Part shown: one piece after another, positions 9,890-28,707 of the stretch
Numbering within the stretch: the first letter of the stretch is position 1
Layout of the letters: every line of letters starts with the position of its first letter
Source: Azospirillum sp. ST 5-10
GTDB lineage: Bacteria > Pseudomonadota > Alphaproteobacteria > Azospirillales > Azospirillaceae
Assembly: GCF_051225715.1 (NCBI RefSeq)
Contig: NZ_JBPJSP010000040.1
Location: 20,015 to 52,014, forward strand
Direction: 5' to 3'
Length of the DNA: 32,000 nt
The notes under the pieces: generated by a model
Told to the model about the DNA's origin: nothing
Seen by the model: the letters and a program-made list of their open reading frames with translations, nothing else
Databases searched by the model: none
Translations under genes and position numbers: made by a program

Positions 9890-9897
9890 GACCGGCC

Positions 9898-10110
9898 TCA
9901 ATGATCATCGGTGATCTCGACATCGTAGGCTTCACCCGGAAGCACCAACACGTCAACGTTGGCGCAGGCTTCCCCGATCGCGGCCCAGCGGAAACACACC
10001 CGCCACTGGGCATTGATCCTGATGCTGTATTGGCCGACACGATTGCCGTCGCAGGCGGCTGCGGCGACGACCCGCGGGGGCAGCCGTCCTGCGGCGTCCG
10101 CCCCGTGTCC
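9898..10110 (-). pseudogene. higB: higB (RelE/ParE-superfamily killer protein) remnant, N-terminally truncated
   Basis: Own translation of the minus frame ending at TGA 9900..9898: ...GRLPPRVVAAAACDGNRVGQYSIRINAQWRVCFRWAAIGEACANVDVLVLPGEAYDVEITDDH*. The GQYSIRINxQWRxCFRW...DVEIxDYH core is present. There is no start codon or N-terminal homology upstream, and the ORF track does not list it as an ORF. Confidence 0.5.
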
Positions 10111-11737: not shown

Positions 11738-11793
11738 GGTGGCCTCCCGGTCCGATGAGGATGGTTCAGACGGCGCCCGTCGAATGGCGCCGG

Positions 11794-14318: not shown

Positions 14319-15139
14319 CGGACCGTCTCCAGGAAGGACAGCACGGGGGCGGCGTAGGCGGCGGGGTCCTCGGCGTAGCCGGCGTGCCCGACCCCGGGGA
14401 TCTCGGCGTACGTCGCCCCCGGGAAGGCGGCGGCGACGCGGCGCGCCGTTTCCGGCGGCACCACCGCGTCGAGGGCGCCGCAGGTGACGAGGCCGGGCAG
14501 CCGCAACCCCGCCACCGCCGCCGCCAGGGCGCCGCGGGCGAGCAGCGAACAGGCGCCGGCGTAGCCCGCCGGCCGCACCTCGGCCATGGCGCGGCGCACC
14601 GCCGCCACCGCCGCGGGCGCCGCGCCGGGGGCGCACAGGCGGCCGGCCCGCCGCTCGGCGAAGACCTCCGGCCCCAGCGCGCGCAGATCGCCGAGGCGGT
14701 CGGCGACGGCGGCCGGCCAGGGGGCGTCGGGCGGCAGCCCGTGGCCCGGCGCCGGATCGGCCAGCACCAGGGCGGCCGCCCGCCGCGGGTGACGGTCGGC
14801 CAGCGCCGCCGCTACCATAGCGCCCAGCGAATGGCCGAGCACGACGGCGCCCGCCACGTCCAGCGCCCCCAGGAGGGCGTCCAGCGCGTCGGCGTAGTCG
14901 GCCGGCCCCGGCCGTTCCTGCGCCAGCGGGTCGGAGCCGCCGTAGCCCGGGGCGTCCCAGGCGATCACCCGCCGGTGCGCCAGGAGCGGCAGCAGGGGCT
15001 GCCAGGACCCGGCGTTGGAGCCGATGCCGTGCAGCAGGACCAGCGGCGCTCCCTGCCCCGCCTCGATCCACGACAGCGTCCGGCCGCCGATGGCGAGGTG
15101 GCGCCGCGGCGCGGCGGCGCTGCGCACGGGGGCCGTCAT
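14315..15139 (-). CDS. alpha/beta-fold hydrolase
   Basis: 274 aa. Oxyanion region LVLLHGIGSNAGSW. Nucleophile elbow GHSLGAMVA. C-terminal IPGVGHAGYAEDP. Its start shares 1 nt with the SDR stop (TGATG). Confidence 0.85.
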   Translation of the reverse strand: MTAPVRSAAAPRRHLAIGGRTLSWIEAGQGAPLVLLHGIGSNAGSWQPLLPLLAHRRVIAWDAPGYGGSDPLAQERPGPADYADALDALLGALDVAGAVVLGHSLGAMVAAALADRHPRRAAALVLADPAPGHGLPPDAPWPAAVADRLGDLRALGPEVFAERRAGRLCAPGAAPAAVAAVRRAMAEVRPAGYAGACSLLARGALAAAVAGLRLPGLVTCGALDAVVPPETARRVAAAFPGATYAEIPGVGHAGYAEDPAAYAAPVLSFLETVR

Positions 15140-15888
15140 CAGGTGAACACGAAGCCGCCGTTCACCGGCAAGGTCTGGCCGGTGACGAAGGACGCCGCGT
15201 CCGACAGCAGGAAGACGGCGGAGCCGACGACGTCGCCCGGGACCTGCGCCCGGGTGATGGCCCGCCCGTTCTCATAGAGGGCGTGGCGTTCCGCCGGCAC
15301 GTACTCCGTCGCCTCCACCTTGGTGAGGCCGACCGCGAGCGCGTTGACCCAGATGCCCTTGGTCCCGAGCTCGCGGGCCAGCGAGCGGGTCATCGAGATC
15401 ACCGCCCCCTTGCTGGCGACGTAGTGCAGCAGGCGCGGCGCCCCCCACAGCGCGGTGTCGGAGGCGAGATTGACGATGCCGCCGCCGCGGTCCATCAGCG
15501 GCACCAGCGCCTTCACCACCAGCCAGACGCCGCGGACGTTGACCCGCAGCACCCGGTCGAAGGTGTCGACGTCGATCTCGTCGAAGGTCTTGCCGCCGAT
15601 GCCGGTGGCGATGGCGGCGTTGTTGACCAGGCCGTCGATCCGCCCCGCCCGTTCCCGCACGGCGGCGGCGAAGGCGTCGACGCTGTCGGGCTCGCCGACA
15701 TCCAGCGGCAGCGCCTCGGCGGCGAATCCCTGCGCCGTCAGGTCGGCGACGGCGGCGGCGGCGAGATCGTCGCGCAGCTCGCCGACGATGACGCGGGCGC
15801 CGGCCGCGCAGCACGCCTCGGCGAAGGCACGGCCGAGGCCGCGGCCGGCGCCGGTGACGACGATGGTCTTGCCGTCGAGCGCACCCAT
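15139..15888 (-). CDS. classical short-chain dehydrogenase/reductase
   Basis: Track ORF 15139..16020. Start moved to MGALDGKTIVVTGAGRGLGRA (residue 45) preceded by AAGGAGG. Motifs TGxxxGxG, NNAA and YVASK (YxxxK) are present. Confidence 0.9.
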   Translation of the reverse strand: MGALDGKTIVVTGAGRGLGRAFAEACCAAGARVIVGELRDDLAAAAVADLTAQGFAAEALPLDVGEPDSVDAFAAAVRERAGRIDGLVNNAAIATGIGGKTFDEIDVDTFDRVLRVNVRGVWLVVKALVPLMDRGGGIVNLASDTALWGAPRLLHYVASKGAVISMTRSLARELGTKGIWVNALAVGLTKVEATEYVPAERHALYENGRAITRAQVPGDVVGSAVFLLSDAASFVTGQTLPVNGGFVFT

Positions 15889-15911
15889 GTCCGTGCCTCC
15901 TTCGTCCCGCC

Positions 15912-16514
15912 TCAGCCCTGGGCGGCCTTGCGGCGCAGCCGCTCCGCCTTGGCGCGAGCGATGGGGTGGTCGTCGGGATAGTCCGGCAGGTCGGGCTTGT
16001 TGTTGCCGAGCATGACGCACATCAGCGACTCCTCCTGGCTCTCGTTGCGCAGGCCGCGGTAGACGCCGGGCGGCACGGAGATGACGTCGCGCTCGTTAAG
16101 GCGGGTCTCCCAGGTCTCGCCCTCGTACTCGAAGAACAGGACGATGCCGCGGCCGCGCAGGATAAAGAACGCCTCCTCCACATCGTGGTGGACGTGCAGC
16201 GGCCCCTCGCAGCCGGCCGGCAGGATCATCGTGGAGAAGGTGAAGTGCTCGGCCGGGATGGTGTTGGTGTCGCTGGCGACCCCGGCCGCCCCGGTGCCGA
16301 TGTAGCGGGTCTGGGCGCGGCGGTACTTGGGATCGACCTCGGCCTGCCAGGCCAGCGCGTTCCAGTCGTAGGTGCGGGTCTCGTGCTGGGCGATGCGGGT
16401 CTTCAGCCAGTCGCCGAGCGACGCGCCGGCAGGCTTCTTCCAGGTCGGGAACTCGGGATTCTCCTGCGACGGGATCGGCACCTCGGGGGCGGCGGTCTTC
16501 ACGGCAGCGCTCAT
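15912..16514 (-). CDS. cupin-domain protein (putative metal-dependent oxygenase, isomerase or decarboxylase)
   Basis: Track ORF 15912..16517 (GTG). ATG at 16514 lies 7 nt after AGGAGG. Cupin motif 1 GCEGPLHVHHDVEEAFFILRG. Motif 2 reads PPGVYRGLRN, with Arg where the usual His sits. Confidence 0.75.
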   Translation of the reverse strand: MSAAVKTAAPEVPIPSQENPEFPTWKKPAGASLGDWLKTRIAQHETRTYDWNALAWQAEVDPKYRRAQTRYIGTGAAGVASDTNTIPAEHFTFSTMILPAGCEGPLHVHHDVEEAFFILRGRGIVLFFEYEGETWETRLNERDVISVPPGVYRGLRNESQEESLMCVMLGNNKPDLPDYPDDHPIARAKAERLRRKAAQG

Positions 16515-16560
16515 CACGGGACCTCCTGCTGGGCCGGCGCGTCTCGCTTCGCCCGAGGGC

Positions 16561-16595
16561 GTTTCATATATGAGACGTGCGTTTTGATATGAAAC
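16561..16595. promoter_or_regulatory. operator-like palindrome GTTTCA-TATA-TGAGAC plus 9-bp inverted repeat GTTTCATAT/ATATGAAAC
   Basis: AT-rich segment in the 169-nt divergent region between the cupin operon (start 16514) and the SDR gene (16684). Core at 16561-16576; arms at 16561-16569 and 16587-16595. Same palindrome type as 24683-24698. Confidence 0.5.
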
Positions 16596-16683
16596 ATGCT
16601 AGAGAGGTCGGGCGGGCGCGTCAAGGGTTTCGACCGTGCGCACCGTCCACCTGCACCACCGGCACGAGGGGGAGGCTCCGGCG

Positions 16684-17463
16684 ATGGATCTCGGGTTGAA
16701 GGGCCGCACGGCGATCGTCTGCGCCGCCAGCCGCGGCCTCGGGCGCGCCTGCGCCGAGGCGCTGGCGGCCGAAGGAGCGGAGATCCTGCTGGTGGCCCGC
16801 ACGGCGGGGCCGCTGGAGGAGGCGGCCGCCGCGATCGCCGGCGCCCACGGCGCCACGGTGCGCTGGGTGGCGGCCGACGTGGCGACCGACGCCGGCATCG
16901 CCGCCGTCGTCGACGCCTGCCCCGATCCCGACATCCTGGTGAACAACGCCGGCGGCCCGCCGCCCGGCGACTTCCGCGACTGGGACCGCGCCGCCTGGCA
17001 CCGGGCGCTGGACGCCAACATGCTGTCGGCGGTCCTGCTCGTCCGGGCGACGGTGGACGGGATGAGCGCCCGCGGCTTCGGGCGCATCGTCAACATCACC
17101 TCCTCGGCGGTGCGGGCACCGCTGCCGATCCTCGGCCTCTCCAACGGCGCGCGCGCCGGCCTCACCGGCTTCGTCGCCGGCCTGGCGCGCGAGGTCGCCC
17201 GGCACGGGGTGACGGTCAACAACCTGCTGCCGGGCACCTTCGACACCGGCCGCCTGCAGGCCAACTTCGAGGCGCGCGCCGCCCGCGAGGGCCGCCCGGT
17301 CGAGGAGGTCCGCGCCGCGTCGCGCCGCGCCAACCCGACCGGCCGTTTCGGCGACCCGGCGGAACTGGGCGCGCTGTGCGCCTATCTCTGCAGCCCGCAG
17401 GCGGGCTACATCAACGGCCAGAACATCGTGCTGGACGGCGGGGCGCACAGCTCGCTGGCGTGA
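16684..17463 (+). CDS. atypical SDR-like oxidoreductase (BKR-like subgroup)
   Basis: Track ORF 16636..17463. Start moved to MDLGLKGRTAIVCAASRGLG (residue 17) after GGGGGAGG. The SDR fold is clear, but the YxxxK position reads LSNGAR. Confidence 0.8.
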   Translation: MDLGLKGRTAIVCAASRGLGRACAEALAAEGAEILLVARTAGPLEEAAAAIAGAHGATVRWVAADVATDAGIAAVVDACPDPDILVNNAGGPPPGDFRDWDRAAWHRALDANMLSAVLLVRATVDGMSARGFGRIVNITSSAVRAPLPILGLSNGARAGLTGFVAGLAREVARHGVTVNNLLPGTFDTGRLQANFEARAAREGRPVEEVRAASRRANPTGRFGDPAELGALCAYLCSPQAGYINGQNIVLDGGAHSSLA

Positions 17464-17669
17464 GGGATGGCGTGGCCACGCCGGGCATGCACCGTCGGGG
17501 CTGTGCCGGCCGGATTTTCGCCGCCGTCGGTGATGGGGAAACTAAGATGCGCAAGGCCGGCGCCGAGGGCGTGAGGCATTGCATCGGCTTCGGCCAGGGG
17601 CGGTGCACGTCATGCAGGCATGGACGTTAAAGACCGTTCTGTAGAAAACCTGGGGGTGCAAGGCAATCT

Positions 17670-17716
17670 GTTGGAATGATTGACAACAGGCTGCCGGTGT
17701 TGGTACATTTTCCAAC
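17670..17716 (+). promoter_or_regulatory. putative sigma70-type promoter bracketed by 7-bp inverted repeat
   Basis: TTGACA (17680-17685), 18-nt spacer, TACATT (17704-17709). Inverted repeat GTTGGAA (17670-17676) / TTCCAAC (17710-17716) ends directly at ATG 17717. Confidence 0.4.
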
Positions 17717-18013
17717 ATGAAAGCCCGTTCCCTCCTGGACCGCCGCATCACGCTGAGGCCGACGGTGTTTGCGGAGTTGGTTCTATGGGACGTGCCGGCT
17801 CCCGTCCCTGGCAGTGCTCACAACTACAAATACCGGTTGGCTCTGGTTTCCGGGGGCGTATGCGTCCTACGCTACGACAACGAGGCTGGAAAGGGCGATC
17901 ACGTTCATGTCGGCACCGATGAGCGGCCCTACCGGTTCGAGGGGGTCGACCGTCTGATCGCCGATTTCGAAATCGATGTGCGGAGGTGGCTCGATGAGCA
18001 CGGTGACTCTTGA
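17717..18013 (+). CDS. DUF6516-like small protein (putative toxin of a two-gene module; I recall RefSeq naming the family TumE)
   Basis: 98 aa. Core WDVPAPVPGSAHNYKYRLALV...LRYDNEAGKGDHVHVG...PYRF matches my memory of this family. Overlaps the next gene by 20 nt. Confidence 0.55.
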   Translation: MKARSLLDRRITLRPTVFAELVLWDVPAPVPGSAHNYKYRLALVSGGVCVLRYDNEAGKGDHVHVGTDERPYRFEGVDRLIADFEIDVRRWLDEHGDS

Positions 18014-18341
18014 AGTGTCCGACCTTAGCGAGGGACTGGCCGCGTTTCGCAAGGCATGGACGAGCGGACGCGCCGAGGAAGGAGCCCGCATCGGCTTCGC
18101 CTCGCCGGAGCTGCTGTGGAAGGTGCTCACCGCCAAGCGCTGGGAATTGCTTCGGACCATGACCGGTCAGGGGCCGCTGGCTCTGCGCGAGGTCGCAAGG
18201 CGCGTCGAGCGCGACGTGAAAGGCGTCCACACCGACGTTCACGCTCTGGTCGAGGCAGGCCTCATTCGCAGGACGGCGGACGGAAAGTTCGAGTTCCCGT
18301 ACGACGCGGTCCACGTCGATTTCATGCTGCGCGCTGCGTGA
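17994..18341 (+). CDS. winged-HTH DNA-binding protein (putative cognate antitoxin/regulator)
   Basis: Track ORF 17976..18341. ATG at residue 7 (MSTVTLEV) follows GGAGG by 7 nt. LLWKVLTAKRWELLRTMTGQGPLALREVARRVERDVKGVHTDVHALVEAGLI is a MarR/ArsR-like wHTH. Confidence 0.55.
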   Translation: MSTVTLEVSDLSEGLAAFRKAWTSGRAEEGARIGFASPELLWKVLTAKRWELLRTMTGQGPLALREVARRVERDVKGVHTDVHALVEAGLIRRTADGKFEFPYDAVHVDFMLRAA

Positions 18342-18362
18342 GCACCCGACCAAGGCGCCCGT

Positions 18363-18378
18363 CGTCAGCGCGCTGACG
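18363..18378. terminator. perfect 16-bp palindrome CGTCAGCGCGCTGACG between convergent genes
   Basis: Lies between the HTH gene stop (18341) and the purT stop (18438). No U-tract. Confidence 0.35.
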
Positions 18379-18410
18379 GCGCTGCCGCCGGCACCTTGAA
18401 CCGGACCCAC

Positions 18411-18429
18411 CGCGATCTCTTCGATCGCG
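18411..18429 (-). terminator. hairpin CGCGATC-TCTTC-GATCGCG just downstream of purT
   Basis: 7-bp stem, 8 nt beyond the purT stop codon on the minus strand. No clear U-tract. Confidence 0.3.
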
Positions 18430-18437
18430 CCCGGCGA

Positions 18438-19613
18438 TCAGGGTTCGTACCGGATGCGCACCCGCCCGGCCGCGCGCCGCGCCAGGTCGCGCGCCGCGTC
18501 GGCGGTGGCGCCGGTCGCCAGGGCGACGCCCATGCGGCGGTACGGACGGGTGGTCGGCTTGCCGAAGAGGCGAACCTCCACCTCGGCGTCCGGCGACCCC
18601 AGCCGCAGCGCCTCGTCCAGCCCTTCGAAGGCGAAGCGCTCGGACTCGCGGTCGGCGAGGATCACCGCCGAGGCGGCCGGCCCGCGCAGGTGCACGGCGG
18701 GGATCGGCAGGCCGAGGATGGCGCGGGCGTGCAGGTCGAACTCCGACAGGTTCTGGGAGATCAGCGTCACCATGCCGGTGTCGTGCGGCCGCGGCGACAG
18801 CTCGGAGAAGATCACCGCGTCGCCGGCCACGAAGAACTCGACCCCGAACAGGCCGTAGCCGCCGAGATCGTCGACGATCTTGCGGGCCATCTCCTGGGCC
18901 TCGGCGACGAGCGTGTCCGGCATGGCGACGGGCTGCCAGGATTCCTGGTAGTCGCCGCGCTCCTGGCGGTGGCCGATCGGCGGACAGAACACCACGCCGT
19001 CGCGCGTGCGCACCGTCAGCAGGGTGATCTCGTAGTCGAAGGCGACGAACTGCTCGACGATGACCCGCCGGCGGTCGCCGCGCATGTTGGCGACCGCGTA
19101 GGTCCAGGCGCGCTCCAGCTCCTCCTCGCTGCGCACCGTGCTCTGCCCCTTGCCGGACGACGACATCACCGGCTTGACCACGCAGGGCAGCCCGGTGTGG
19201 GCGACGGCGGCCCGCACCTCGTCGAGGCTCTCCGCGTAGCGGTAGCGCGAGGTGCGCAGGCCGAGCCCGCCCGCCGCCACCTCGCGGATGCGGTCGCGGT
19301 TCATGGTCATGACGGTGGCGCGCGCCGAGGGGACGACCGTGAAGCCCTCGGCCTCCAGCTCCTGCAGCACCTCGGTGCGGATCGCCTCGATCTCCGGCAC
19401 GATGAAATCGGGCCGGTGCCGCTCCACCGCCGCCCGCAGGGCGTCGCCGTCGAGCATCGAGAAGACCTCGGCCGCATCGGCCACCTGCATCGCCGGCGCC
19501 CCGGCGTAGCTGTCGCAGGCGACCACGTGGCAGCCGTAGCGCTTGGCCGAGATGGCGAACTCCTTGCCGAGCTCGCCGGACCCGAGAAGCAGGATCTTCG
19601 CCGTGAACGCCAT
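18438..19613 (-). CDS. purT: formate-dependent phosphoribosylglycinamide formyltransferase (GAR transformylase 2)
   Basis: 391 aa. KILLLGSGELGKE, VVKPVMSSSGKGQS (ATP-grasp), GLFGVEFF, SPRPHDTG and RRMGVALA are PurT hallmarks. RBS GGAGGAGAGG. Confidence 0.95.
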   Translation of the reverse strand: MAFTAKILLLGSGELGKEFAISAKRYGCHVVACDSYAGAPAMQVADAAEVFSMLDGDALRAAVERHRPDFIVPEIEAIRTEVLQELEAEGFTVVPSARATVMTMNRDRIREVAAGGLGLRTSRYRYAESLDEVRAAVAHTGLPCVVKPVMSSSGKGQSTVRSEEELERAWTYAVANMRGDRRRVIVEQFVAFDYEITLLTVRTRDGVVFCPPIGHRQERGDYQESWQPVAMPDTLVAEAQEMARKIVDDLGGYGLFGVEFFVAGDAVIFSELSPRPHDTGMVTLISQNLSEFDLHARAILGLPIPAVHLRGPAASAVILADRESERFAFEGLDEALRLGSPDAEVEVRLFGKPTTRPYRRMGVALATGATADAARDLARRAAGRVRIRYEP

Positions 19614-19639
19614 GAACGCCTCTCCTCCACCACAACGGC

Positions 19640-19672
19640 ACCGCCCGGCCGAGGGTAGCGCGGCCGGGCGGT
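19640..19672 (-). terminator. 12-bp-stem hairpin after the RHH antitoxin gene
   Basis: ACCGCCCGGCCG (19640-19651) / CGGCCGGGCGGT (19661-19672) with a 9-nt loop. It lies between the antitoxin stop (19704) and the purT start (19613). No U-tract. Confidence 0.4.
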
Positions 19673-19703
19673 CATGGGTACGGAGAAGTGAGGAGCGCGT
19701 GTC

Positions 19704-19955
19704 TCAGGCGGATTCCATCCGGTCATCGTCGCGCGGCGGGTTGCCAGTTCCGGAGCGGGCCAGGATGTCCTTGGCTTGGCCACGCTGCGCGCGGGCACCG
19801 CGGGCGGCGAAATAGCGCTCGGCCTCGGACTGGGCTCCGACCCGGGCCGCAAGGGCCGTCGCGATATACTGGTTGAGACTGACTCCCGCGGCTTCCGCCT
19901 GGGCAATGGCTGCCTTCTTCAAGTCGTCGGGAAGCCGGAGTGGAAAGCTGGTCAT
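19704..19955 (-). CDS. ribbon-helix-helix (Arc/HicB-like) antitoxin
   Basis: 83 aa. SFPLRLPDDLKKAAIAQAEAAGVSLNQYIATALAARVG is the RHH signature. Its ATG overlaps the PIN gene stop (ATGA). Confidence 0.75.
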   Translation of the reverse strand: MTSFPLRLPDDLKKAAIAQAEAAGVSLNQYIATALAARVGAQSEAERYFAARGARAQRGQAKDILARSGTGNPPRDDDRMESA

Positions 19956-20398
19956 GGACTCATCCTCCTGAGAACCTCGACCGGACGCAGAACGGAAATG
20001 CCGAACGGGGCCGCACCGGCCGTCAGGTCTCCAAGGTTGAAACTGACGATCACGTCCGCAGCCCCATTGATGGCGGTTTCCAAAACCAGATCGTCATCTG
20101 GATCCGCCGCGCCGGGTCGCCACCGGTAGTCGAAGGCGACCGGCACGCAAATCCCGGCGATCTCATCGAGGATATCATGCACGTCCGCGGCACTGATGCC
20201 GAACTTCGCGAGATTTTCCGGCCGGGTCAGCACCGCCTCGTACTCCACCATCAGCGTGGTCGAGAGCATGAGGTGTGCCTTGCCGTCCAGGACGTCGAGC
20301 AGAAGCCGACGCGATGCACCCACCGGGCTGTGAAAAGCCGCGAACATGACATCGGTGTCGAGGACAAGCTTCACCATCTCTGATATCGTATACGACAT
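19952..20398 (-). CDS. PIN-domain toxin
   Basis: Last 148 aa of track ORF 19952..21340, starting MSYTISEMVKLVLDTDVMFAAF (the first acidic PIN residue sits in LVLDTDV). Later DDDLVLETAINGAADVIVSFN matches the C-terminal acidic PIN motif. The start is uncertain; an alternative ATG lies at 20377. Confidence 0.75.
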   Translation of the reverse strand: MSYTISEMVKLVLDTDVMFAAFHSPVGASRRLLLDVLDGKAHLMLSTTLMVEYEAVLTRPENLAKFGISAADVHDILDEIAGICVPVAFDYRWRPGAADPDDDLVLETAINGAADVIVSFNLGDLTAGAAPFGISVLRPVEVLRRMSP

Positions 20399-20451
20399 CA
20401 CTCGCTCACGCAACGAGTGGGTCTCCCATACGACGCACTGTTGCCCCCGCC

Positions 20452-21480
20452 CTACTCCGCCGCCACCGCCGGCTCGACCAGGGCGCGCGCCTTGGCTTCC
20501 AGCAGGCGCCGCACCCGCGCCAAGCCGACGTCGTGCTGGTAGAGGAACTCGCGCTGGCGGGCGTCGGGGGCCATCGCCTCCAGGATCAGGCGGTCCTGCT
20601 CCAGCACCTGCCAGTGCAGCTCCTCGATCCGGGTGCGGTAGAGGAAGCGCCAGACGTCGCGCTGCCAGCCCTGCGCCTTGCGCACCCGCCAGAAGAAGAC
20701 CATGCAGTGGCCCTCGTCCACCGGGGTGGCGAAGCCGACGATGAAGAAGGGGCCGCCCGGGCCGAAGCGCTTGGCGTAGGGGATGCTGAGGCGCATCCAC
20801 AGACAGTTGGTGTCGCCGAACTCGACCCAGTCGAAGTTGACGCCCATCTGGTTGGTCTTCTCGAAGATCAGGCCGGTCGGCGTCTGGCGCACCGCCATCT
20901 CCGCCGACTTCTCGCCGTACGCCATGGAATGGGACACCGCGTGCAGGTAGCTGCCGTGCATCGGGTCCATGACGTTGTCGATGGCGTAGCGGTAGTTGCA
21001 GTCCCAGTGCGCGACGCACAGGTTGCGCCCGTAGGTGGCGTCGTCCGTCAGCTCCTCGGGCAGATCCAGCTCCGGCACCGCGTCGGAGCGGCCGTCGGAG
21101 AAGTACAGGAAGATCGCCCCGGCGACCTCGCGCACGGGATAGGTGCGCACGTGCGCCTTGCTCTTCATCGGGCAGTTGGGGGAGGCCGGCACGTCGGCGA
21201 CCTTGCCGTCGCCGCGCACCTCCACCCCGTGGTACCAGCAGGCCACCCGGTCGCCCAGGTTCCAGCCCATGGACAGGCGCGCCCCGCGGTGCGGGCAGCG
21301 GTCCTCGCAGGCGTGCACCTGGCCGTCGCGGTCGCGCCACACCACGATGTTCTCGGACAGGCGGGTGATCCCCACCGGCGTGTCCTGCACCGCCCAGCTC
21401 GCCAGCACCGGGTGCCAGACGTTGAGGATGCCGGTGTCGAGCCGGCGTTCCAGGTCGGACTTCATCGACGTCTCAGCCAT
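20452..21480 (-). CDS. Rieske [2Fe-2S] non-haem-iron oxygenase, alpha-only (phthalate/VanA family)
   Basis: Track ORF 20452..21510. ATG at residue 11 (MAETSMK) follows GAAGGAAG. Rieske motif CPHRGARLS...CWYHG. Iron motif DNVMDPMHGSYLH (Dx3Dx2Hx4H). No beta-subunit gene nearby. Confidence 0.9.
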   Translation of the reverse strand: MAETSMKSDLERRLDTGILNVWHPVLASWAVQDTPVGITRLSENIVVWRDRDGQVHACEDRCPHRGARLSMGWNLGDRVACWYHGVEVRGDGKVADVPASPNCPMKSKAHVRTYPVREVAGAIFLYFSDGRSDAVPELDLPEELTDDATYGRNLCVAHWDCNYRYAIDNVMDPMHGSYLHAVSHSMAYGEKSAEMAVRQTPTGLIFEKTNQMGVNFDWVEFGDTNCLWMRLSIPYAKRFGPGGPFFIVGFATPVDEGHCMVFFWRVRKAQGWQRDVWRFLYRTRIEELHWQVLEQDRLILEAMAPDARQREFLYQHDVGLARVRRLLEAKARALVEPAVAAE

Positions 21481-21518
21481 CGCGGTCTTCCTTCTTCCCG
21501 CCCCACTCACGCGCCCAC

Positions 21519-21815
21519 TCAGGCGCCCAGGCGCGCGATCTCGCGCTCGAAGCTCTCCACCGTCCAGGGGCGGTGGTCGGGCGTGCGCAGGCCCCGCGCG
21601 TTCAGCCCGTCGACCAGCGCCGGCAGATCCTCCGCACCCGCCTCGAAGCAGGCGATCAGGGCGTCGGCCAGGTCGCTCTCGTAGGGGGTCGGCGCCGCCG
21701 GGCGGGTCTGCCAGACGATGTTCGCCACGGCGCCGGGACGTTCGATCACGCCCTTGCCGGCGGCGGTGTTGGGCGCCGGCATGCGCCAGGGCGCCAGATA
21801 CGGGTTGTGGTCCAT
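21519..21815 (-). CDS. small conserved protein of unknown function (I recall RefSeq naming similar proteins recombinase-like HTH domain-containing protein)
   Basis: 98 aa. Plausible composition. Tightly packed: it starts 1 nt after the RidA stop and ends 38 nt before the Rieske start. C-terminal GLRTPDHRPWTVESFEREIARLGA. Confidence 0.55.
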   Translation of the reverse strand: MDHNPYLAPWRMPAPNTAAGKGVIERPGAVANIVWQTRPAAPTPYESDLADALIACFEAGAEDLPALVDGLNARGLRTPDHRPWTVESFEREIARLGA

Positions 21816-21816
21816 C

Positions 21817-22218
21817 TCAGCCCTCCTGTGCGGCGCCGATCACGGCGACCGCGTCGATTTCCACCAGAAGCCCGGGGGCCGCCAGCCCCGTCACCTCGAC
21901 CAGGGTCGAGCAGGGCGGCACCCCGTCGAAGACCGCGCGCCGGGCGGCGGCCACCTCGCCGCGCCGGGCCATGTCGGTGACGTAGACCGTCAGCTTCACC
22001 ACGTCGGCCATGGTCCCGCCGGCCGCCTCCACCAGGGCGCGGACGCGCCGCAGCGCCTCGCGCGCCTGCGCCTCCACGCGGTCGCCGCCGACCACGCCGC
22101 CGCCCGGCACCCCGGCGTGCTGGCCCGAGAGGTGGAGCGTGCCGTCGACCAGCAGGGCGTTGGAGAACAGCCCCGGCGGCGGCTCCGGCACCCCGGGGGC
22201 GGTGATGCGGCGGATCAC
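21817..22218 (-). CDS. RidA/YjgF-family enamine/imine deaminase
   Basis: C-terminal 133 aa of track ORF 21817..23088. GTG start after GGAGG plus 8 nt. FSNALLVDGTLHLSGQ, DVVKLTVYVTD and PCSTLVEVTGLAAPGLLVEIDAVA match the RidA fold. Confidence 0.8.
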   Translation of the reverse strand: MIRRITAPGVPEPPPGLFSNALLVDGTLHLSGQHAGVPGGGVVGGDRVEAQAREALRRVRALVEAAGGTMADVVKLTVYVTDMARRGEVAAARRAVFDGVPPCSTLVEVTGLAAPGLLVEIDAVAVIGAAQEG

Positions 22219-22241
22219 GGCCAAGTCCTCCGGCCGTCCCG

Positions 22242-23234
22242 TCACTGCACGAACGCGTTGGTGTAGAGCTCCTCGACCGGGGTCGCCTTCTGGACGATGC
22301 CCTGATCCAGGTAGAAGTCCTGCAGCTTCGCCAGGCGCCCGGCGTCCATGGCGCCGACCACGTCCTGCCCCTTGTACGTACGCTCGGTGTAGTTGGCGAA
22401 GATGCGGGTCAGCAGCTCCTCCTTGCCGGCCATGGACGGCTCCGCCTGCGCGTACGTCTTCGCCGCGCGGGCCGGGTCCTCCATGATGTACGTCATGCCT
22501 TTCAGGGTCGCCCGGACGATCGCCTTCACCAGCTCCGGCCGCTTCTCGATCGCCTCGTCGGAGGCGAGGATGGCCTGGGCCATGGAGGGGAAGTACTCCA
22601 TGGTCGGCATCGACACGGTGGCGCCGGGCAGGCCGTCCTTGACGTTGATCTCCCAGTCCGGCGTGCAGGCGCAGGCGTCGGCCTCGCCGGCGATCACCAG
22701 CTTCGGCACGCCGGCCGGGCCGACCGCCTGGGCGTTGACGTCGTTCTTGGTCAGGCCGACCGCGGCCAGGCTGCCCAGCAGGGCGTAGTAGGTGGTGTCC
22801 TGGTAGGACAGCGCGGTGACGGTCTTGCCCTTGAGGTCGGCCAGGGTCTTGACGCCGCGGTCGGCGCGGGCGACGACGGTGGTCATCGAGCCGCCGCCGA
22901 GCACGCCCACCGCCTTCACCGGGATGCCGTTGGCGCGGACGATGATGGGCGTGTCGCCGATGGCGCCGCCGATCATGGCGTTGCCGGCGCCCACCTGCTT
23001 GGCGACGTCGACGCCGCCGCGCGCGACCTGGAACTCCACGTCGTAGCCGGCGTCCTTGTAGTAGCCGAGGTGCTTGGCCAGCACCCACGGCGCGAAGGCG
23101 GGCAGCGACAAGGGTGCCGGCAGCAGGTAGGTCACCGTCTCGGCCGCCGCGCCCGCCGGCGCGCCGCCGATCCCCGCCGCCAGCACCGCGGCGGCCGCGA
23201 GCGCCCGCAGGCCCCCGATCAGGCTCGTGCTCAT
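22242..23234 (-). CDS. ABC-transporter periplasmic substrate-binding protein (NMT1/SsuA/TauA-like, NitT/TauT family)
   Basis: Last 330 aa of track ORF 22242..23597, from MSTSLIGGLRALAAAAVLAAGIGGAPAGAAAE (Sec signal peptide). The mature part resembles the SsuA/NMT1 fold. Confidence 0.85.
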   Translation of the reverse strand: MSTSLIGGLRALAAAAVLAAGIGGAPAGAAAETVTYLLPAPLSLPAFAPWVLAKHLGYYKDAGYDVEFQVARGGVDVAKQVGAGNAMIGGAIGDTPIIVRANGIPVKAVGVLGGGSMTTVVARADRGVKTLADLKGKTVTALSYQDTTYYALLGSLAAVGLTKNDVNAQAVGPAGVPKLVIAGEADACACTPDWEINVKDGLPGATVSMPTMEYFPSMAQAILASDEAIEKRPELVKAIVRATLKGMTYIMEDPARAAKTYAQAEPSMAGKEELLTRIFANYTERTYKGQDVVGAMDAGRLAKLQDFYLDQGIVQKATPVEELYTNAFVQ

Positions 23235-23590
23235 GGTCCCTCGTCTCCCTGTTCTTGGTGGAAGCCGTTCCCGGCCCGGGACGCCTGCCATTCGCGCGTC
23301 AGGCGCTCGCGGACCGGGACGAAGTCGTAGGTCGGATGGAACTCGGTGGAGAAGACGCCCCAGGCGCAGCGCTCGATCTCGACGTTGACGACGTTGAGGA
23401 GGCGCGGCGGCAGACGCAGGGTGACGATCTGGCCGACGCCCATCACCACGTTCCAGCTCACGATCTCGGCGCCGGCCGGGGGAAAGCGCTCCCACCATCC
23501 CGTCGCGGCGAGGTGGCCCTGGATCTGCTCCAGCGTCTTGCTCTGGTCGTGCTTCAGGAAGACGGTGAGCAGGATGGTCTCTTCCGGCAC
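23231..23590 (-). CDS. small hypothetical protein, operon member
   Basis: Track ORF 23231..23611. I favour GTG 23590 because GGGAGG lies 6 nt upstream. Its stop overlaps the SBP ATG (ATGA). I recognise no family. Confidence 0.5.
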   Translation of the reverse strand: MPEETILLTVFLKHDQSKTLEQIQGHLAATGWWERFPPAGAEIVSWNVVMGVGQIVTLRLPPRLLNVVNVEIERCAWGVFSTEFHPTYDFVPVRERLTREWQASRAGNGFHQEQGDEGP

Positions 23591-23618
23591 GGCACACCTC
23601 CCGCCTTTCATCCCGGGG

Positions 23619-24590
23619 TCAGATGTCGAGGACCAGGCGGCGGCCGCGGGCGCGCGAGACGCAGATCATCATGCTGCGTCCGGCGGCGCGCTCGGCCGCC
23701 GACAGGATGCTGTCGCGGTGGTCGGGCTCGCCCTCCAGCACCGCCGTCTCGCAGGTGCCGCACACCCCCTGCTCGCACGAGCACGGCGCGTCGACCCCCG
23801 CGGCCGCCAGCGCGTCGAGGATGCTGCGGTCGGGCGGCACGACGACGGTCGTTCCGGAGCGCGCGCACACCACCTCCAGCTCCGCCGACTCCCCGGCGGC
23901 GGCTGCCGCCGCGCTGCGCGGCGCGAACCACTCGAAGCGCAGGCTGCCCTCGGGCCAGCCGGCGCCGGCGGCCTCGACCGCCTGCATCAGCCGTTCCGGC
24001 CCGCAGCAGTAGACCAGCGTGTCGGCCGCCGGCTCGGCCAGCACCGCCTCGACCGACAGGCGCGTGCCCGCGGCGCTGGCGTGCAGCACCACAGCACCGC
24101 CCGGCACGGTCGCCAGCGCGTCGAGGAAGGGCGCGGCGGACACCGCGCGCACGCAATAGTGCAAGGTCCACGGCGCGCCGGCGGCGGCGGCCGCGCGCAC
24201 CATCGGCAGGAGCGGCGTGATGCCGATGCCGCCGGCGATGAACAGGTAGCGGGCGGCCGGGTCGAAGCGGAAGTTGTTGCGCGGGGCCCCGACGGTGAGG
24301 AGCTGGCCCGGCCGCAGCGTCTCGTGCACGGCGCGCGAGCCGCGCCCGTCCGGCGTCTTCAGCACCGCCACCGTGTAGACGCCGCGGTCGGCGGGGTCGC
24401 CGCACAGCGAATACTGGCGGATCACGCCGCCCGGCAGATGCAGATCGAGGTGGGCGCCGGGCGCGAACGGCGGCAGCGGACGGCCGTCGGGATCGCGGAA
24501 GTCGAGGGACAGGACGTCCGCCGCCTCCCACGTCATGCGGTGGAGACGCACCGTCAAGGTGCCGTTCGCGGGGCCTGCGCTGTCCTGCAT
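23619..24590 (-). CDS. PDR/VanB-type oxidoreductase (FMN/NAD-binding FNR-like domain + C-terminal plant-type 2Fe-2S ferredoxin)
   Basis: Track ORF 23619..24812. Start moved to MQDSAGPANG (residue 75). RQYSLCG flavin motif, FIAGGIGITP NAD motif, and C-terminal CSCEQGVCGTCET cluster. Confidence 0.9.
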   Translation of the reverse strand: MQDSAGPANGTLTVRLHRMTWEAADVLSLDFRDPDGRPLPPFAPGAHLDLHLPGGVIRQYSLCGDPADRGVYTVAVLKTPDGRGSRAVHETLRPGQLLTVGAPRNNFRFDPAARYLFIAGGIGITPLLPMVRAAAAAGAPWTLHYCVRAVSAAPFLDALATVPGGAVVLHASAAGTRLSVEAVLAEPAADTLVYCCGPERLMQAVEAAGAGWPEGSLRFEWFAPRSAAAAAAGESAELEVVCARSGTTVVVPPDRSILDALAAAGVDAPCSCEQGVCGTCETAVLEGEPDHRDSILSAAERAAGRSMMICVSRARGRRLVLDI

Positions 24591-24637
24591 CGGCGGGTAC
24601 CCCCCTGCCTTCGGTCCGTCATGATCGTTTCGTCGTA

Positions 24638-24698
24638 TTGACACTATCAACCTTCGATGCGACAATCCAGATATAAAATGACGTCTCATTAGTGAGAC
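24638..24698 (+). promoter_or_regulatory. putative promoter TTGACA-N17-GACAAT followed by perfect palindrome GTCTCA-TTAG-TGAGAC
   Basis: AT-rich divergent region between the reductase start (24590) and the ABC ATPase start (24793). -35 at 24638-24643, -10 at 24661-24666, palindrome at 24683-24698. Confidence 0.45.
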
Positions 24699-24792
24699 AG
24701 ACCCGCCCCGCGCCGTGGGGCGGGTGCCCTGAACACCGGGCGGCGCCGGACGGCACGGGACCATGTGCCGACGGCGCCAGGAGGGTCGAGGC

Positions 24793-25614
24793 ATGGCCGC
24801 AGCATCACTCACTCACGACGCGCCCAGTCACGCGCCGGCGCCGCGGATCGAGTTCCGCTCCGTCACCAAGCGGTTCGGCGGCGGGGCCGGCGGCGTGGTC
24901 GCCGTCTCCGGCGTCACCTTCACCATCGCCGACGGCGAGGTGGTCTCGCTGATCGGCCCGTCGGGCTGCGGCAAGAGCACCCTGCTCAGCATGGGCTCCG
25001 GCCTCTACGCGCCGAGCGAGGGCGTGGTGCTGGTCGACGGGGAGCCGGTGGACGGCCCCAACGACCACGTCGCCTTCATGCTGCAGAAGGACCTGCTGCT
25101 GCCCTGGCGCACCATCCGCGCCAACGTGGAGTACGGGCTGGAGATCAAGGGCATCGCGGTGGACGAGCGGCGGGCGCGTTCGCTCGAGCTCCTGGAGAAG
25201 TTCCACCTCGCCGGCTTCGGCGACCATTACCCGCACCAGCTCTCCGGCGGCATGCGCCAGCGCGCGGCGATGGCCCGCACCATCGCCGTGAACCCCACGG
25301 TGCTGCTGATGGACGAGCCGTTCTCGGCGCTCGACGCCCAGACCAAGATGGTGCTGCAGCAGGACCTCGCCGACACGCTGGCGCGCGAGGGGCGCACGGC
25401 GCTGTTCATCACCCACGACCTGGCGGAGTCCATCGCGCTCTCCGACCGCGTGCTGGTGATGAGCGCCCGGCCCGGCCGCATCATCGAGGAGATCGCCGTC
25501 GACCTCCCCCACCGCGACAACCCGATGGCCCGCCGCCGCCTCGGCGCGATGGCCGGCTACGTCGACCGCCTGATGGAGCTGCTGCATGTCGGCCACGACC
25601 TCGAGCCCGCGTGA
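24793..25614 (+). CDS. ABC transporter ATP-binding protein (NitT/TauT family)
   Basis: Track ORF 24763..25614. ATG at residue 11 follows AGGAGGG. Walker A GPSGCGKST, signature LSGGMRQR, Walker B LLMDEP. Confidence 0.9.
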   Translation: MAAASLTHDAPSHAPAPRIEFRSVTKRFGGGAGGVVAVSGVTFTIADGEVVSLIGPSGCGKSTLLSMGSGLYAPSEGVVLVDGEPVDGPNDHVAFMLQKDLLLPWRTIRANVEYGLEIKGIAVDERRARSLELLEKFHLAGFGDHYPHQLSGGMRQRAAMARTIAVNPTVLLMDEPFSALDAQTKMVLQQDLADTLAREGRTALFITHDLAESIALSDRVLVMSARPGRIIEEIAVDLPHRDNPMARRRLGAMAGYVDRLMELLHVGHDLEPA

Positions 25615-26494
25615 GGGCCGGATGACCATCGATCGGGACTACCCGGCCGGCCAGGGTGCCGCGCCGCGTCCGGCCGACGCCCTGCGGCGGCTGCCGTCCG
25701 CCCTGTTCGGCAACGTCGCCGTCGCCTCCACGCTCCTGCTGCTGGCCTTCCTGGCCGCCTGGGAGTGGGGGCCCGGCCTGGTCGGGCTGCCGCCCTTCCT
25801 GATGCCGCCCCTGTCCGACGTGGTGGTCGAGACGGGGCGGATGTTCGCCACCGAGAACCTGCTGTACCACACCGCCGTCACCGCGGCGGAGACCCTGGCC
25901 GGCTTCCTCATCGGCTCGCTGCTCGGCATGGCGATCGGCTACGTGCTGGGCATGTCGCCGAAGGCGGAGTTCCTGCTGTCGCCCTACATCCTGGCCCTGC
26001 AGATCGCGCCCAAGGTGGCGTTCGCGCCGCTGTTCGTGGTGTGGTTCGGCTACACCGTGACGCCCAAGGTGCTGGTGGCCGTGCTGATCGTCTTCTTCCC
26101 GGTCATGGTCAACGTGCTGGGGGCGATCCGCACGGTCGACCCCGACCTCGTCAACCTGGCGCGCACCTTCAAGGCGACGCGCTGGCAGATCTTCCGCACC
26201 ATCCAGTTCCCCGCCGCCCTGCCGCCCCTGTTCTCCGGCCTGCGCATCGCCTCGACCCTGGCCGTCATCGGCGTCATCGTCGGCGAGCTGGTGGGCGGCA
26301 ACACCGGGCTCGGCTACCTGCTGGTGTTCGGCGAGGGGTCGGGCAACACGGCCATGGTGTTCGTCACCATCATCATGCTGACGATGATCGGCATCGCCGC
26401 GTACGCCGCCGTCGTCGTTGCGGAGCGGCGCGTCCTGCATTACCTCCCGCGGGCACACCGGGACGCCACGACCACGGGAGGAAGCAGTGCCTGA
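25586..26494 (+). CDS. ABC transporter permease (NitT/TauT family)
   Basis: 302 aa, multiple hydrophobic segments, EAA-like region near RTFKATRWQIFRTIQFPAALP. Overlaps the ATPase gene end. The exact start is uncertain (alternative M13 at 25622). Confidence 0.85.
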   Translation: MSATTSSPREGRMTIDRDYPAGQGAAPRPADALRRLPSALFGNVAVASTLLLLAFLAAWEWGPGLVGLPPFLMPPLSDVVVETGRMFATENLLYHTAVTAAETLAGFLIGSLLGMAIGYVLGMSPKAEFLLSPYILALQIAPKVAFAPLFVVWFGYTVTPKVLVAVLIVFFPVMVNVLGAIRTVDPDLVNLARTFKATRWQIFRTIQFPAALPPLFSGLRIASTLAVIGVIVGELVGGNTGLGYLLVFGEGSGNTAMVFVTIIMLTMIGIAAYAAVVVAERRVLHYLPRAHRDATTTGGSSA

Positions 26495-27308
26495 CGAGAC
26501 CCGGAACGAGGACGCCGAGCGCTACCTGGTCCCCGGCCTGCAGCGCGGCCTGGAGATCCTGCGCGCCTTCCGCCGCGACCGCACCCACATCAGCCCGACC
26601 GAGATCGCCAAGGAGCTCAGCATCCCCCGCTCCACCGTGTTCCGCCTGATGACCACCTTGGAGTACCTGGGCTTCCTCGTGCGCTCGCGCGACGGCCGCT
26701 TCTACAAGCTGGGGCCGGCCGTGCTGACGCTGGGATTCGAGTACCTGGCCTCGCTGGAGATCACCGAGATCGCCCGCGGGCCGCTGGAGCGCCTGCGCGA
26801 CCGCACTGGCCTGCCGACCCACATGGTGGTGCGCGACGGGCGCGAGGTGGTGTTCGTCCTCAAGACCAACGTGCCGTCGGCGCTGGTCGGCTCGGTCAGC
26901 GTCGGCACCCGCCTGCCGGCCCACGCCACGGTGCTCGGCCGCGTCTTCCTCGCCCACATGAGCGAGGCGGAGCTGCGCGCGGTCTGCCCCGACGAGACCC
27001 TGGAGCGCTTCACGCCGCAGACCCCCGGCACGCTGGCCGAGCTGCGCGCCCTGCTGGCCGAGGACCGGCGGCGCGGCTACGCCATCAGCGAGAGCTTCTT
27101 CGAGAGCAACGTCTCGGCCATCGCCGCCCCGGTGTTCGACGACAGCGGCACCGTGGTGGCGGCGATCAACGCCATCGCCCGCGACGGCGCCGCCACCCAC
27201 GAGCAGCTCGTCGACGCGGTGGCGCCGGAGGTGGTGGCCACGGCGCAGGAGATCTCCCGCCACCTCGGCCACCGCGACACCGCCGCGCTGGCCGCGGCCA
27301 GCGCCTGA
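26487..27308 (+). CDS. IclR-family transcriptional regulator
   Basis: Track ORF 26418..27308. I favour GTG 26487 (GGGAGGAAG upstream), which overlaps the permease stop by 8 nt. HTH LVPGLQRGLEILRAFRRDRTHISPTEIAKELSIPRSTVFRLMTTLEYLGFL and the IclR effector domain. Confidence 0.85.
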   Translation: MPDETRNEDAERYLVPGLQRGLEILRAFRRDRTHISPTEIAKELSIPRSTVFRLMTTLEYLGFLVRSRDGRFYKLGPAVLTLGFEYLASLEITEIARGPLERLRDRTGLPTHMVVRDGREVVFVLKTNVPSALVGSVSVGTRLPAHATVLGRVFLAHMSEAELRAVCPDETLERFTPQTPGTLAELRALLAEDRRRGYAISESFFESNVSAIAAPVFDDSGTVVAAINAIARDGAATHEQLVDAVAPEVVATAQEISRHLGHRDTAALAAASA

Positions 27309-27309
27309 C

Positions 27310-27359
27310 CCGACCGGCGCGGTTCCGCGCCAGACCACCGACCGGCGCGGTTCCGCGCC
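27310..27359. repeat. two perfect 22-bp direct repeats, each containing a short palindrome
   Basis: CCGACCGGCGCGGTTCCGCGCC occurs at 27310-27331 and 27338-27359 (28-bp period). Each copy carries GGCGCGG-TT-CCGCGCC. Located between the IclR stop (27308) and the dioxygenase ATG (27378). Confidence 0.7.
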
Positions 27360-27377
27360 CGATCCGAGGACCTCCGC

Positions 27378-28347: not shown

Positions 28348-28707
28348 GGGAAGGCGGCAGGGCTGGACAAATCTATCGGGAAGCCCGCCCGTTTCATTGT
28401 CTTTGGAGACAATCCGGTCCATTCCGTCCGCTCCCGGACCCCGCAATCGAGAAAATCGCTCCGGGTGCACAGCCGAAGCCGGGCGGACGTCAGTCGTCCC
28501 GATTCCCTATATTGCACAACCGCCGCGGGCAGCTTGCCTGCGGGAGCGGCGCTCCTCGCATATCCGTTTGACGTCTACCGGCGTCCACCGGATCACGGTA
28601 CAGTGGCCGAACGAAGCTCGAGATCCGGCGTGCAGCCCGGATCCGCCTTGCGGCGGCCGAAGGCCGGCGTTCCGCCGCGGCGCGCGGCGCCGGAGAAGGA
28701 ACGGGGG

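Follow-up and report, generated by a model that had tools for sequence, protein, structure and literature searches.

Two palindromes of the form GTYTCA-N4-TGAGAC lie 8 kb apart in a stretch of 32,000 nucleotides from Azospirillum sp. ST 5-10 (hereafter the window). Are they operators of a single regulator, and do they join two separated gene blocks in one regulon, as an earlier note on this DNA had proposed? It is highly probable that the palindromes are operators of the IclR regulator encoded at 26487-27308, arranged as tandems of a strong and a weak site, and that four transcription units are repressed from them. The locus appears to be a new alphaproteobacterial member, physically split, of an IclR regulog already predicted in silico.

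Within the window, GTYTCA-N4-TGAGAC with at most one mismatch occurs twice, at site 1 (16561-16576) and site 2 (24683-24698), exactly where the palindromes had been noticed. Only 0.12 occurrences are expected, and none of 100 shuffles of the window matched the observed count. With an overall GC content of 73.5%, the window is AT-richer in the intergenic DNA that contains the two sites, and each site is flanked by divergently oriented genes, in agreement with the earlier note. A scoring matrix of 18 nucleotides was built from 86 related loci only, excluding the window, and was refined on 117 sites. The four best positions in the window according to this outside matrix are the following predicted operator sites.

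16560-16577: site 1a, strong operator site (predicted), C-GTTTCATATATGAGAC-G, an 18-bp palindrome with its core at 16561-16576; top matrix score, 25.2 bits
24682-24699: site 2a, operator site (predicted), C-GTCTCATTAGTGAGAC-A, core 24683-24698; 16.6 bits, rank 2
24663-24680: site 2b, weak tandem partner (predicted), CAATCCAGATATAAAATG; 13.9 bits, rank 3
16579-16596: site 1b, weak tandem partner (predicted), GCGTTTTGATATGAAACA, of which only the right half is good; 10.8 bits, rank 4

The fifth position scores just 5.0 bits, and all but four of the 25 best positions score 5.0 bits or less. In both tandems the starts of the two sites (1a to 1b, 2a to 2b) are exactly 19 bp apart. From the 19-bp pairs and the score at rank 5, it follows that the window contains just two operators, both of them tandems of a strong and a weak site. 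At all other positions, such as those upstream of the VOC gene or of the XRE regulator, the matrix finds nothing above 5 bits. The boxes are GTTTC/GAGAC at site 1 and GTCTC/GAGAC at site 2. The 9-bp inverted repeat that had been reported around site 1 is genuine, with arms GTTTCATAT (16561-16569) and ATATGAAAC (16587-16595); its second arm is the good half of the weaker tandem site 1b. The two 17-mers compared in the earlier note match at 13 of 17 positions on recount, instead of 14.

Two half-site-like hexamers were considered as true boxes and rejected. GTTTCG at 24627-24632, 56 bp from the strong site, falls in a stretch (24626-24643) that scores -1.7 bits, and GTCTCG at 16541-16546, 20 bp from the strong site, is not among the 25 best positions of the window. 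Both are probably not functional boxes. A GC hairpin with the core CCCGCCCC-N7-GGGGCGGG (-23.7 kcal/mol) is present at 24701-24725, between site 2a and the ABC start codon. It is within the predicted 5' untranslated region (UTR), lacks a T-run and is unique in the window.

Conservation of the palindrome was examined in related loci, which comprise contigs whose IclR orthologues are 59-66% identical and 80 metagenomic loci where the identity is 47-55%; individual loci are designated by L numbers. The consensus of the palindrome in the orthologous loci is YGTTTCATATATGAAACR. Matches to GTTTCATATATGAAAC were counted in 87 loci (981 kb) and in shuffles that preserve composition in 40-bp blocks, with the following results.

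No mismatch: 1 match in the loci, 0 in the shuffles
At most 1 mismatch: 12 matches in the loci, 0 in the shuffles
At most 2 mismatches: 33 matches in the loci, 0.05 in the shuffles
At most 3 mismatches: 54 matches in the loci, 0.75 in the shuffles
At most 4 mismatches: 98 matches in the loci, 7.7 in the shuffles

A scan of reference genomes also gave seven loci of distant IclR homologues, which served as negative controls; around these homologues (133 kb), no match to the consensus with three or fewer mismatches was found. Sites scoring at least 14 bits are outside mapped cluster coding sequences in 138 of 144 cases. The motif recurs at the heads of gene arrays, upstream of the HTH_62 gene, the ABC gene and the cupin gene, and is scarcely met elsewhere. 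Among loci with at least six cluster genes, 40 of 46 have a site, and the remaining six are contigs cut at the head of the cluster. The unselected flanks widen the palindrome to 18 bp, with Y at -1 and R at +17, a rule that both window sites obey. In site 2 the centre reads TTAG, a common variant (GTTTCATTAGTGAAAC) that recurs in many orthologous loci. Neighbouring sites are spaced by 19 bp in 72 pairs and by 18 bp in six. A strong/weak tandem like that of site 1 is also found in L011, L010 and L012. In L011, the palindrome is located between the cupin and SDR2 genes, with the same placement as site 1; the SDR2 protein of this locus is 82% identical to that of the window, and its gene has the same divergent arrangement with cupin.

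An extra operator variant with a CG-containing centre (GTTTCGTATACGAAAC and similar) was observed in L094 (19759-19774), L063 (15753-15768) and L074-L076 (about 15755-15782). It follows the reductase gene and, in Ralstonia, precedes porin and MFS-transporter genes, which suggests that the regulon may reach outer-membrane and MFS uptake genes in Betaproteobacteria.

Do the two blocks belong together? Fifteen window proteins were mapped onto the related loci by tblastn. Across 87 orthologous loci, the two window blocks are represented by a single uninterrupted gene array, mostly co-directional, in which the IclR gene is embedded. The usual order is [HTH_62-Rieske]-[ABC-NMT1-permease]-SDR-cupin-hydrolase-IclR-SDR-TPP-AspDH-ALDH-VOC-(reductase), where TPP stands for thiamine pyrophosphate enzyme, AspDH for aspartate-dehydrogenase-like protein and ALDH for aldehyde dehydrogenase. 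Block 1 genes, which are remote from the IclR gene in the window, adjoin it in these loci. As the contiguity is independent of the motif, the proposal that both blocks belong to one unit is supported by synteny. The reference-genome scan with the IclR protein yielded one close relative only, from Arenibaculum (72% identity), on a contig that ends 450 bp upstream of the IclR gene and is therefore unsuited to footprinting.

A second, divergent IclR paralogue, 23-35% identical to the window protein, adjoins the orthologue in several loci (L026 8813-9529, L044 8951-9586, L050 8977-9633, L060 8842-9543, L064 1482-2183 and L089 2651-3421). In the same loci, pairs of sites about 0.26 kb apart are present in the divergent ABC/Rieske intergenic region.

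Which protein would bind the palindromes? The window IclR protein consists of an N-terminal HTH_IclR domain (PF09339, E = 2.2e-15) and a C-terminal IclR_C domain (PF01614, E = 1.6e-38), on the open reading frame (ORF) 26418-27308, as is the rule in the IclR family, and it matches solved IclR-family structures over its full length. It is 100% identical to an IclR protein of Azospirillum sp. ST 5-10, and its nearest solved relatives are the IclR proteins of Pca regulons. The best-scoring subfamily model is TIGR02431 (PcaR/PcaU/PobR), with 196.6 bits against a curated cut-off of 284.75. The protein thus appears related to this subfamily without being a member by the NCBIfam criterion. Its gene is in the operon behind site 2, which implies autoregulation. 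The earlier note had taken IclR for the sole regulator within the blocks. This does not hold, since a second predicted helix-turn-helix protein, HTH_62 (PF20552), is encoded at 21519-21815. The HTH_62 protein is conserved in the cluster (for example L009 6348-6650, L012 3786-4082, L094 8294-8599), and its gene is usually the first after the operator, directly upstream of the Rieske/VanA-like oxygenase gene. Its role may be that of a partner to the oxygenase or of a further regulator. The motif occurs in loci that lack HTH_62 within 8 kb. At least seven loci with a length of at least 12 kb (L026, L042, L058, L070, L078, L084, L091) carry it and give no HTH_62 hit even at E <= 1, and L011 (11.6 kb), devoid of an HTH_62 gene, carries it too; the presence of the motif thus does not depend on HTH_62. 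The motif is absent at L085, an IclR homologue locus without cluster genes. The IclR protein, named as candidate binder in the earlier note, gains support from family-typical boxes and spacing, from the motif in loci without HTH_62 and from published sites at orthologous clusters. Together with the position of its gene inside the cluster, these sequence-based arguments suggest that it binds the palindromes.

IclR-family sites have been compiled by orthologous group in Supplementary Tables 2 and 3 of Suvorova & Gelfand 2021 (Front Microbiol 12:675815, PMC8222616). According to this source, boxes of the form GTTYC...GRAAC are typical of the family, the group 1 operator consensus is GKTYCRYW3-4RYGRAMC, with a subgroup GTT-11-AAC, and tandem sites 18-22 nt apart occur in 94 orthologous groups, which was interpreted as tetramer binding (PMC8222616). 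The boxes found here, GTTTC...GAAAC, conform to the group 1 boxes GKTYC/GRAMC. The length does not: group 1 sites have 17-18 nt with 7-8 nt between boxes, and the present palindrome has 16 nt with 6 nt between boxes (GTT-10-AAC). As the tabulated sites of PA3514 and H16_B0728 are also of 16 nt (PMC8222616), the operator seems to be a shorter-spacer variant already within the published data. With 19 bp between 1a and 1b and between 2a and 2b, both window operators fall in the class of tandem sites with centres 18-22 nt apart.

PA3508 constitutes one orthologous group in this compilation (PMC8222616), and is within the PA3504-PA3514 operon (bioRxiv 10.1101/2025.04.03.646983), the first gene of which bears the sites. 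The regulog of the PA3508 group is an in-silico prediction (PMC8222616), with the following sites in Supplementary Table 2.

PA3514: GTTTtATATtTaAAAC at -55 and GTTTCATATATaAAAC at -36, 19 nt apart
Rpic_4511: cTTcCtTtTtgGAAAC and GTTTCATAggTaAAAC
H16_B0728: GTTTtATATATGAAAC and GTTTtATATATGgAAC
H16_B0729 and Reut_B3569: GTTcaATATcTaAAcC and GTTTCATtagTaAAAC, 19 nt apart

Further genes in the same site block are Reut_B3568, Reut_B3593, RALTA_B0564 and RALTA_B0579, and the sites listed are 10-55 nt upstream of start codons (PMC8222616). They fit the consensus derived here. The palindrome of 16 nt (GTTTCATATATaAAAC, GTTTtATATATGAAAC, GTTTCATtagTaAAAC) and the tandem spacing of 19 bp are the same as in the orthologous loci, and the TTAG variant GTTTCATTAGTGAAAC also occurs in the listed H16_B0729 and Reut_B3569 sites. 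The gene cluster is the same too. IclR orthologues at 47-50% identity are present on chromids of Ralstonia, Cupriavidus and Burkholderia, and the Ralstonia wenshanensis locus (L094) carries genes for a hypothetical protein, Rieske oxygenase, SDR, cupin, hydrolase, IclR, SDR, TPP enzyme, aspartate dehydrogenase, ALDH, VOC, PDR/VanB reductase, porin and MFS transporter. The exact published Rpic_4511 sites are located upstream of its first gene, and its IclR protein is 50% identical to that of the window. A computational prediction of the motif, of the tandem spacing and of the association with the cluster had therefore been published before. The presumed orthology of the window IclR with PA3508 is drawn from the shared site block, from operon membership and from the occurrence of IclR orthologues in the genera of the published sites, not from a sequence alignment. 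The window differs from the published regulog in that it is alphaproteobacterial, Azospirillum sp. ST 5-10 not figuring in the site list of that study, and in that its cluster is in two loci with a tandem operator each. In addition, three of the four strong window half-sites are GAGAC, not GAAAC.

The window IclR has the same domain architecture as PcaU and PobR of Acinetobacter baylyi and PcaR of Pseudomonas putida. The latter regulate protocatechuate and 4-hydroxybenzoate catabolism; as is presumed for the window protein, they are local regulators of aromatic catabolism encoded beside their targets, although the regulated pathway is different. Their operators are likewise palindromic, with GTTCG/CGAAC-type boxes (PMC8222616). 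In contrast, the window box is GTTTC, the palindrome has 16 instead of 15 nt, and, in place of a third half-site in direct repeat, there is a complete second palindrome in tandem at 19 bp. Besides, the window sites are at a predicted repressor-like position, whereas PcaU and PobR activate. With the tetramer-binding regulators TtgV and IclR, the window system shares a pair of palindromes that are separated by about two helical turns, face the same side of the DNA and overlap the promoter or transcription start site (TSS), an arrangement compatible with a dimer of dimers. The operator sequence and effector are unrelated.

How would the operators act? A sigma-70-like promoter was predicted for each of two operons.

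16596-16624, minus strand: cupin operon promoter (predicted), TTGACG-N17-TAGCAT, consensus match only
24638-24666, plus strand: ABC-IclR operon promoter (predicted), TTGACA-N17-GACAAT, 10/12 matches, consensus only

The -10 element of the cupin promoter abuts site 1b, followed by site 1a, centred near +21. Counterpart promoters are TTGACC/TAACAT in L011 and TTGACA/TAGGTT in L010. At the ABC-IclR promoter, site 2b overlaps the -10 element and the predicted TSS, and site 2a is centred near +18. Layouts like those of the two window promoters are found in L010, L011, L012, L022, L031, L033, L042 and others. When promoters with at least 9/12 matches are considered, 25 of 40 site centres are at 0 to +30 of the predicted TSS. 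The placement of the tandems thus appears repressor-like, as judged from consensus promoters.

In the proposed mechanism, each operator would comprise a strong and a weak palindrome of 16-18 bp, with starts 19 bp apart, or about two helical turns, so that an IclR dimer of dimers (tetramer) could occupy one DNA face at each tandem. The tandem would be just downstream of a sigma-70-like -10 element, covering approximately the TSS to +30, and this position makes repression of four units most likely. These would be the cupin-to-ALDH, SDR2, reductase-to-Rieske and ABC-permease-IclR-VOC units, autoregulation being exerted on the last. Repression would be lifted by the pathway substrate or an intermediate. 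In this Azospirillum, about 3 kb of toxin-antitoxin genes and purT have split a cluster that is normally contiguous, and the duplicate operators would keep both halves under IclR.

Several points weigh against this reading. The promoters are placed by consensus matching only. The predictions gave no convincing promoter for the reductase-Rieske operon, and relative to the sole weak candidate site 2 would be near -76, where a classical repressor is not expected. With 16.6 bits, site 2a has only a modest score, and 5 of its 16 positions deviate from the consensus. As the related loci were fetched with IclR as the query, IclR is present in all of them by construction, and its co-occurrence with the motif is no independent test. 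The literature yielded no experimental binding, footprint, TSS or expression data for the window IclR or PA3508. PcaU, PobR and PcaR, the best-known relatives of the window IclR, are activators or dual regulators. The sites could thus be IclR operators from which the regulator activates transcription, or acts in both ways like PcaU and PobR, by recruiting RNA polymerase with inducer. The best family model (PcaR/PcaU/PobR), the Pca-regulon regulators as closest solved structures, and the activator-like -76 at the only predicted reductase promoter speak for such a role. It is nevertheless considered rather unlikely, because, at the two window promoters predicted with more confidence and in the majority of related loci, the tandem occupies about 0 to +30, and because the published sites, 10-55 nt before start codons, overlap or follow the promoter (PMC8222616). 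Moreover, the TIGR02431 score is below cut-off, so the behaviour of PcaU and PobR is not transferable.

It is also very improbable that IclR is a mere neighbour and that the palindromes are bound by HTH_62 (21519-21815) or a regulator encoded elsewhere. Although HTH_62 carries a predicted helix-turn-helix domain and is often encoded directly downstream of the motif, and although the presence of IclR results from the sampling, HTH_62 was rejected as the binder on account of the motif-bearing loci that lack it. IclR-family sites are documented with this box and with a tandem spacing of 19 bp, and sites of this type were assigned to IclR orthologous groups (PMC8222616). Two regulators encoded on either side of the regulon (XRE/SKI, 7978-8913; STAND, 28465-31695) are not conserved beside the cluster in the related loci, and no motif is present at their promoters. 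A simple scan calls both sites terminator-like (a stem, then a T-rich run), and their folding is more stable than that of shuffles (z-scores of -2.4 to -2.8), as if the palindromes were RNA hairpins, either terminators, attenuators or 5'-UTR structures, instead of protein-binding DNA. The stems are weak (-7 kcal/mol per single site), however, and a terminator is not expected between divergent 5' ends. What is conserved is the GTTTC/GAAAC boxes and not the pairing, and the fixed 19-bp phase together with the occurrence in either orientation relative to the gene is the signature of a DNA face, not of RNA. The hairpin reading was rejected on these grounds and is given hardly any weight. Still less credit is given to a chance likeness of two AT-rich promoter islands. 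Such islands of very GC-rich genomes are alike in composition, and local shuffles of the window sometimes score high with the matrix (maximum 23.6, 95th percentile 13.8), but the sites are unique in the window, conserved and enriched at orthologous promoters, and recovered by an outside matrix. Chance is effectively refuted by the comparative data.

With the palindromes taken as IclR operators, the genes concerned are listed below. They were called from Pfam and NCBIfam profile matches, except that the starts of the reductase and ABC genes come from reading of the sequence; these are most likely at 24590 and 24793.

10265-16517, minus strand: block 1 operon, in transcription order cupin, SDR1, alpha/beta-hydrolase, TPP enzyme, AspDH-like, ALDH
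15912-16517, minus strand: cupin, first gene of block 1
15139-about 15900, minus strand: SDR1, block 1
14315-15139, minus strand: alpha/beta-hydrolase, block 1
12597-about 14300, minus strand: TPP enzyme, block 1
11794-12600, minus strand: AspDH-like (aspartate-dehydrogenase-like), block 1
10265-about 11737, minus strand: ALDH, block 1; best model HpaE, below cut-off
16684-17463, plus strand: SDR2, divergent from the cupin operon, with operator 1 in common
17717-18013: TumE toxin, spacer
17976-18341: HVO_A0114, spacer
18438-19613, minus strand: purT, spacer
19704-19955, minus strand: HicB, spacer
20452-24590, minus strand: block 2 minus-strand operon, in the order reductase, NMT1/SsuA-type protein, RidA, HTH_62, Rieske oxygenase
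23619-24590, minus strand: FNR/VanB-type reductase, block 2
22242-about 23400, minus strand: NMT1/SsuA-type binding protein, block 2
21817-about 22260, minus strand: RidA, block 2
21519-21815, minus strand: HTH_62 protein (PF20552), about 100 residues, block 2
20452-21510, minus strand: Rieske/VanA-like oxygenase, block 2
24793-28298, plus strand: block 2 plus-strand operon, ABC ATPase, permease, IclR, VOC
24793-25614, plus strand: ABC ATPase, block 2
25586-26494, plus strand: permease, block 2
26487-27308, plus strand: IclR regulator, block 2, behind site 2
27378-28298, plus strand: VOC/extradiol-dioxygenase-like protein, block 2

An ORF of 824 codons on the minus strand (12597-15071) is an over-extended version of the TPP-enzyme gene, as the TPP domains begin at residue 278. 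It masks the true alpha/beta-hydrolase gene in a different frame, a typical artefact in high-GC DNA. With the hydrolase added to block 1, the corrected total is still 16 genes, in line with the approximate number given in the earlier note. The blocks are indeed parted by toxin-antitoxin genes and purT. This spacer (17717-19955) is outside the regulon; TumE, HVO_A0114, purT and HicB are absent from the cluster in every related locus mapped. Over the TumE/HVO_A0114 module (17717-18341), the GC content drops to 56-67%.

Three elements of toxin-antitoxin type surround the cluster: TumE with HVO_A0114, HicB, and HigA (9542-9901). Left of the regulon, the minus-strand gene 7978-8913 encodes an XRE helix-turn-helix fused to a shikimate-kinase-like domain, which matches NCBIfam PRK08154, the 'anaerobic benzoate catabolism transcriptional regulator' subfamily. 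On the right, the plus-strand gene 28465-31695 encodes a protein of 1076 residues with an OmpR-type winged helix and a STAND NTPase.

What pathway would be controlled? In comparison with solved structures, the Rieske oxygenase is closest to VanA-class Rieske enzymes of the carbazole, phthalate and dicamba type, and the VOC protein to homoprotocatechuate and catechol 2,3-dioxygenases, which narrows the pathway to an 'aromatic or heterocycle, Rieske plus extradiol type'. A Rieske oxygenase, a reductase, an SDR, an extradiol dioxygenase and an alpha/beta-hydrolase are the classical set for ring dihydroxylation, dehydrogenation, meta-cleavage and hydrolysis. The AspDH-like enzyme, the TPP decarboxylase-like enzyme and the ALDH look as if they acted one after another, in oxidative deamination, decarboxylation and oxidation, and the presence of RidA beside an AspDH-like enzyme hints at an amino- or N-containing substrate. 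The pathway probably degrades an aromatic or N-containing cyclic acid imported by the NMT1-type ABC system. For the regulator, over 540 metagenomic relatives were detected; they come from samples of soil, rhizosphere and sea, and Pseudomonas aeruginosa, Burkholderia, Cupriavidus, Ralstonia and Azospirillum carry relatives as well. Literature searches on PA3508, PA3505/aspartate dehydrogenase, the H16_B07xx tags and the enzyme combination found no functional study of the cluster; two preprints touch the operon in passing, one of them being bioRxiv 10.1101/2025.04.03.646983. The idea that the regulon encodes a widespread, as yet uncharacterized catabolic pathway whose substrate is the effector of this IclR is put forward as a proposal with an even chance of being right. 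Such a pathway would use a VanA-type Rieske oxygenase with an HTH_62 partner, an SDR, an extradiol-type VOC enzyme and a meta-cleavage-type hydrolase, to which an unusual downstream module would be added, made of a cupin, an aspartate-dehydrogenase-like enzyme, a TPP decarboxylase-like enzyme and an ALDH.

For this Azospirillum, two separated gene blocks are joined in one regulon, and operator coordinates and a repressor model are provided for its IclR regulator. The wider value is modest, since the motif, the tandem spacing and the link to the cluster had already been predicted for the orthologues of Pseudomonas, Ralstonia and Cupriavidus. The window offers a natural example of a cluster that, split by toxin-antitoxin genes and purT, would remain under common control through an operator in each half. 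Clusters of this kind are very widespread, the PA3504-PA3514 operon of P. aeruginosa among them. A promoter-operator reporter made from these sites could serve in screens for the inducer and, if the substrate is indeed the effector of IclR, the operator/regulator pair would be a ready-made reporter for finding the substrate of the pathway.

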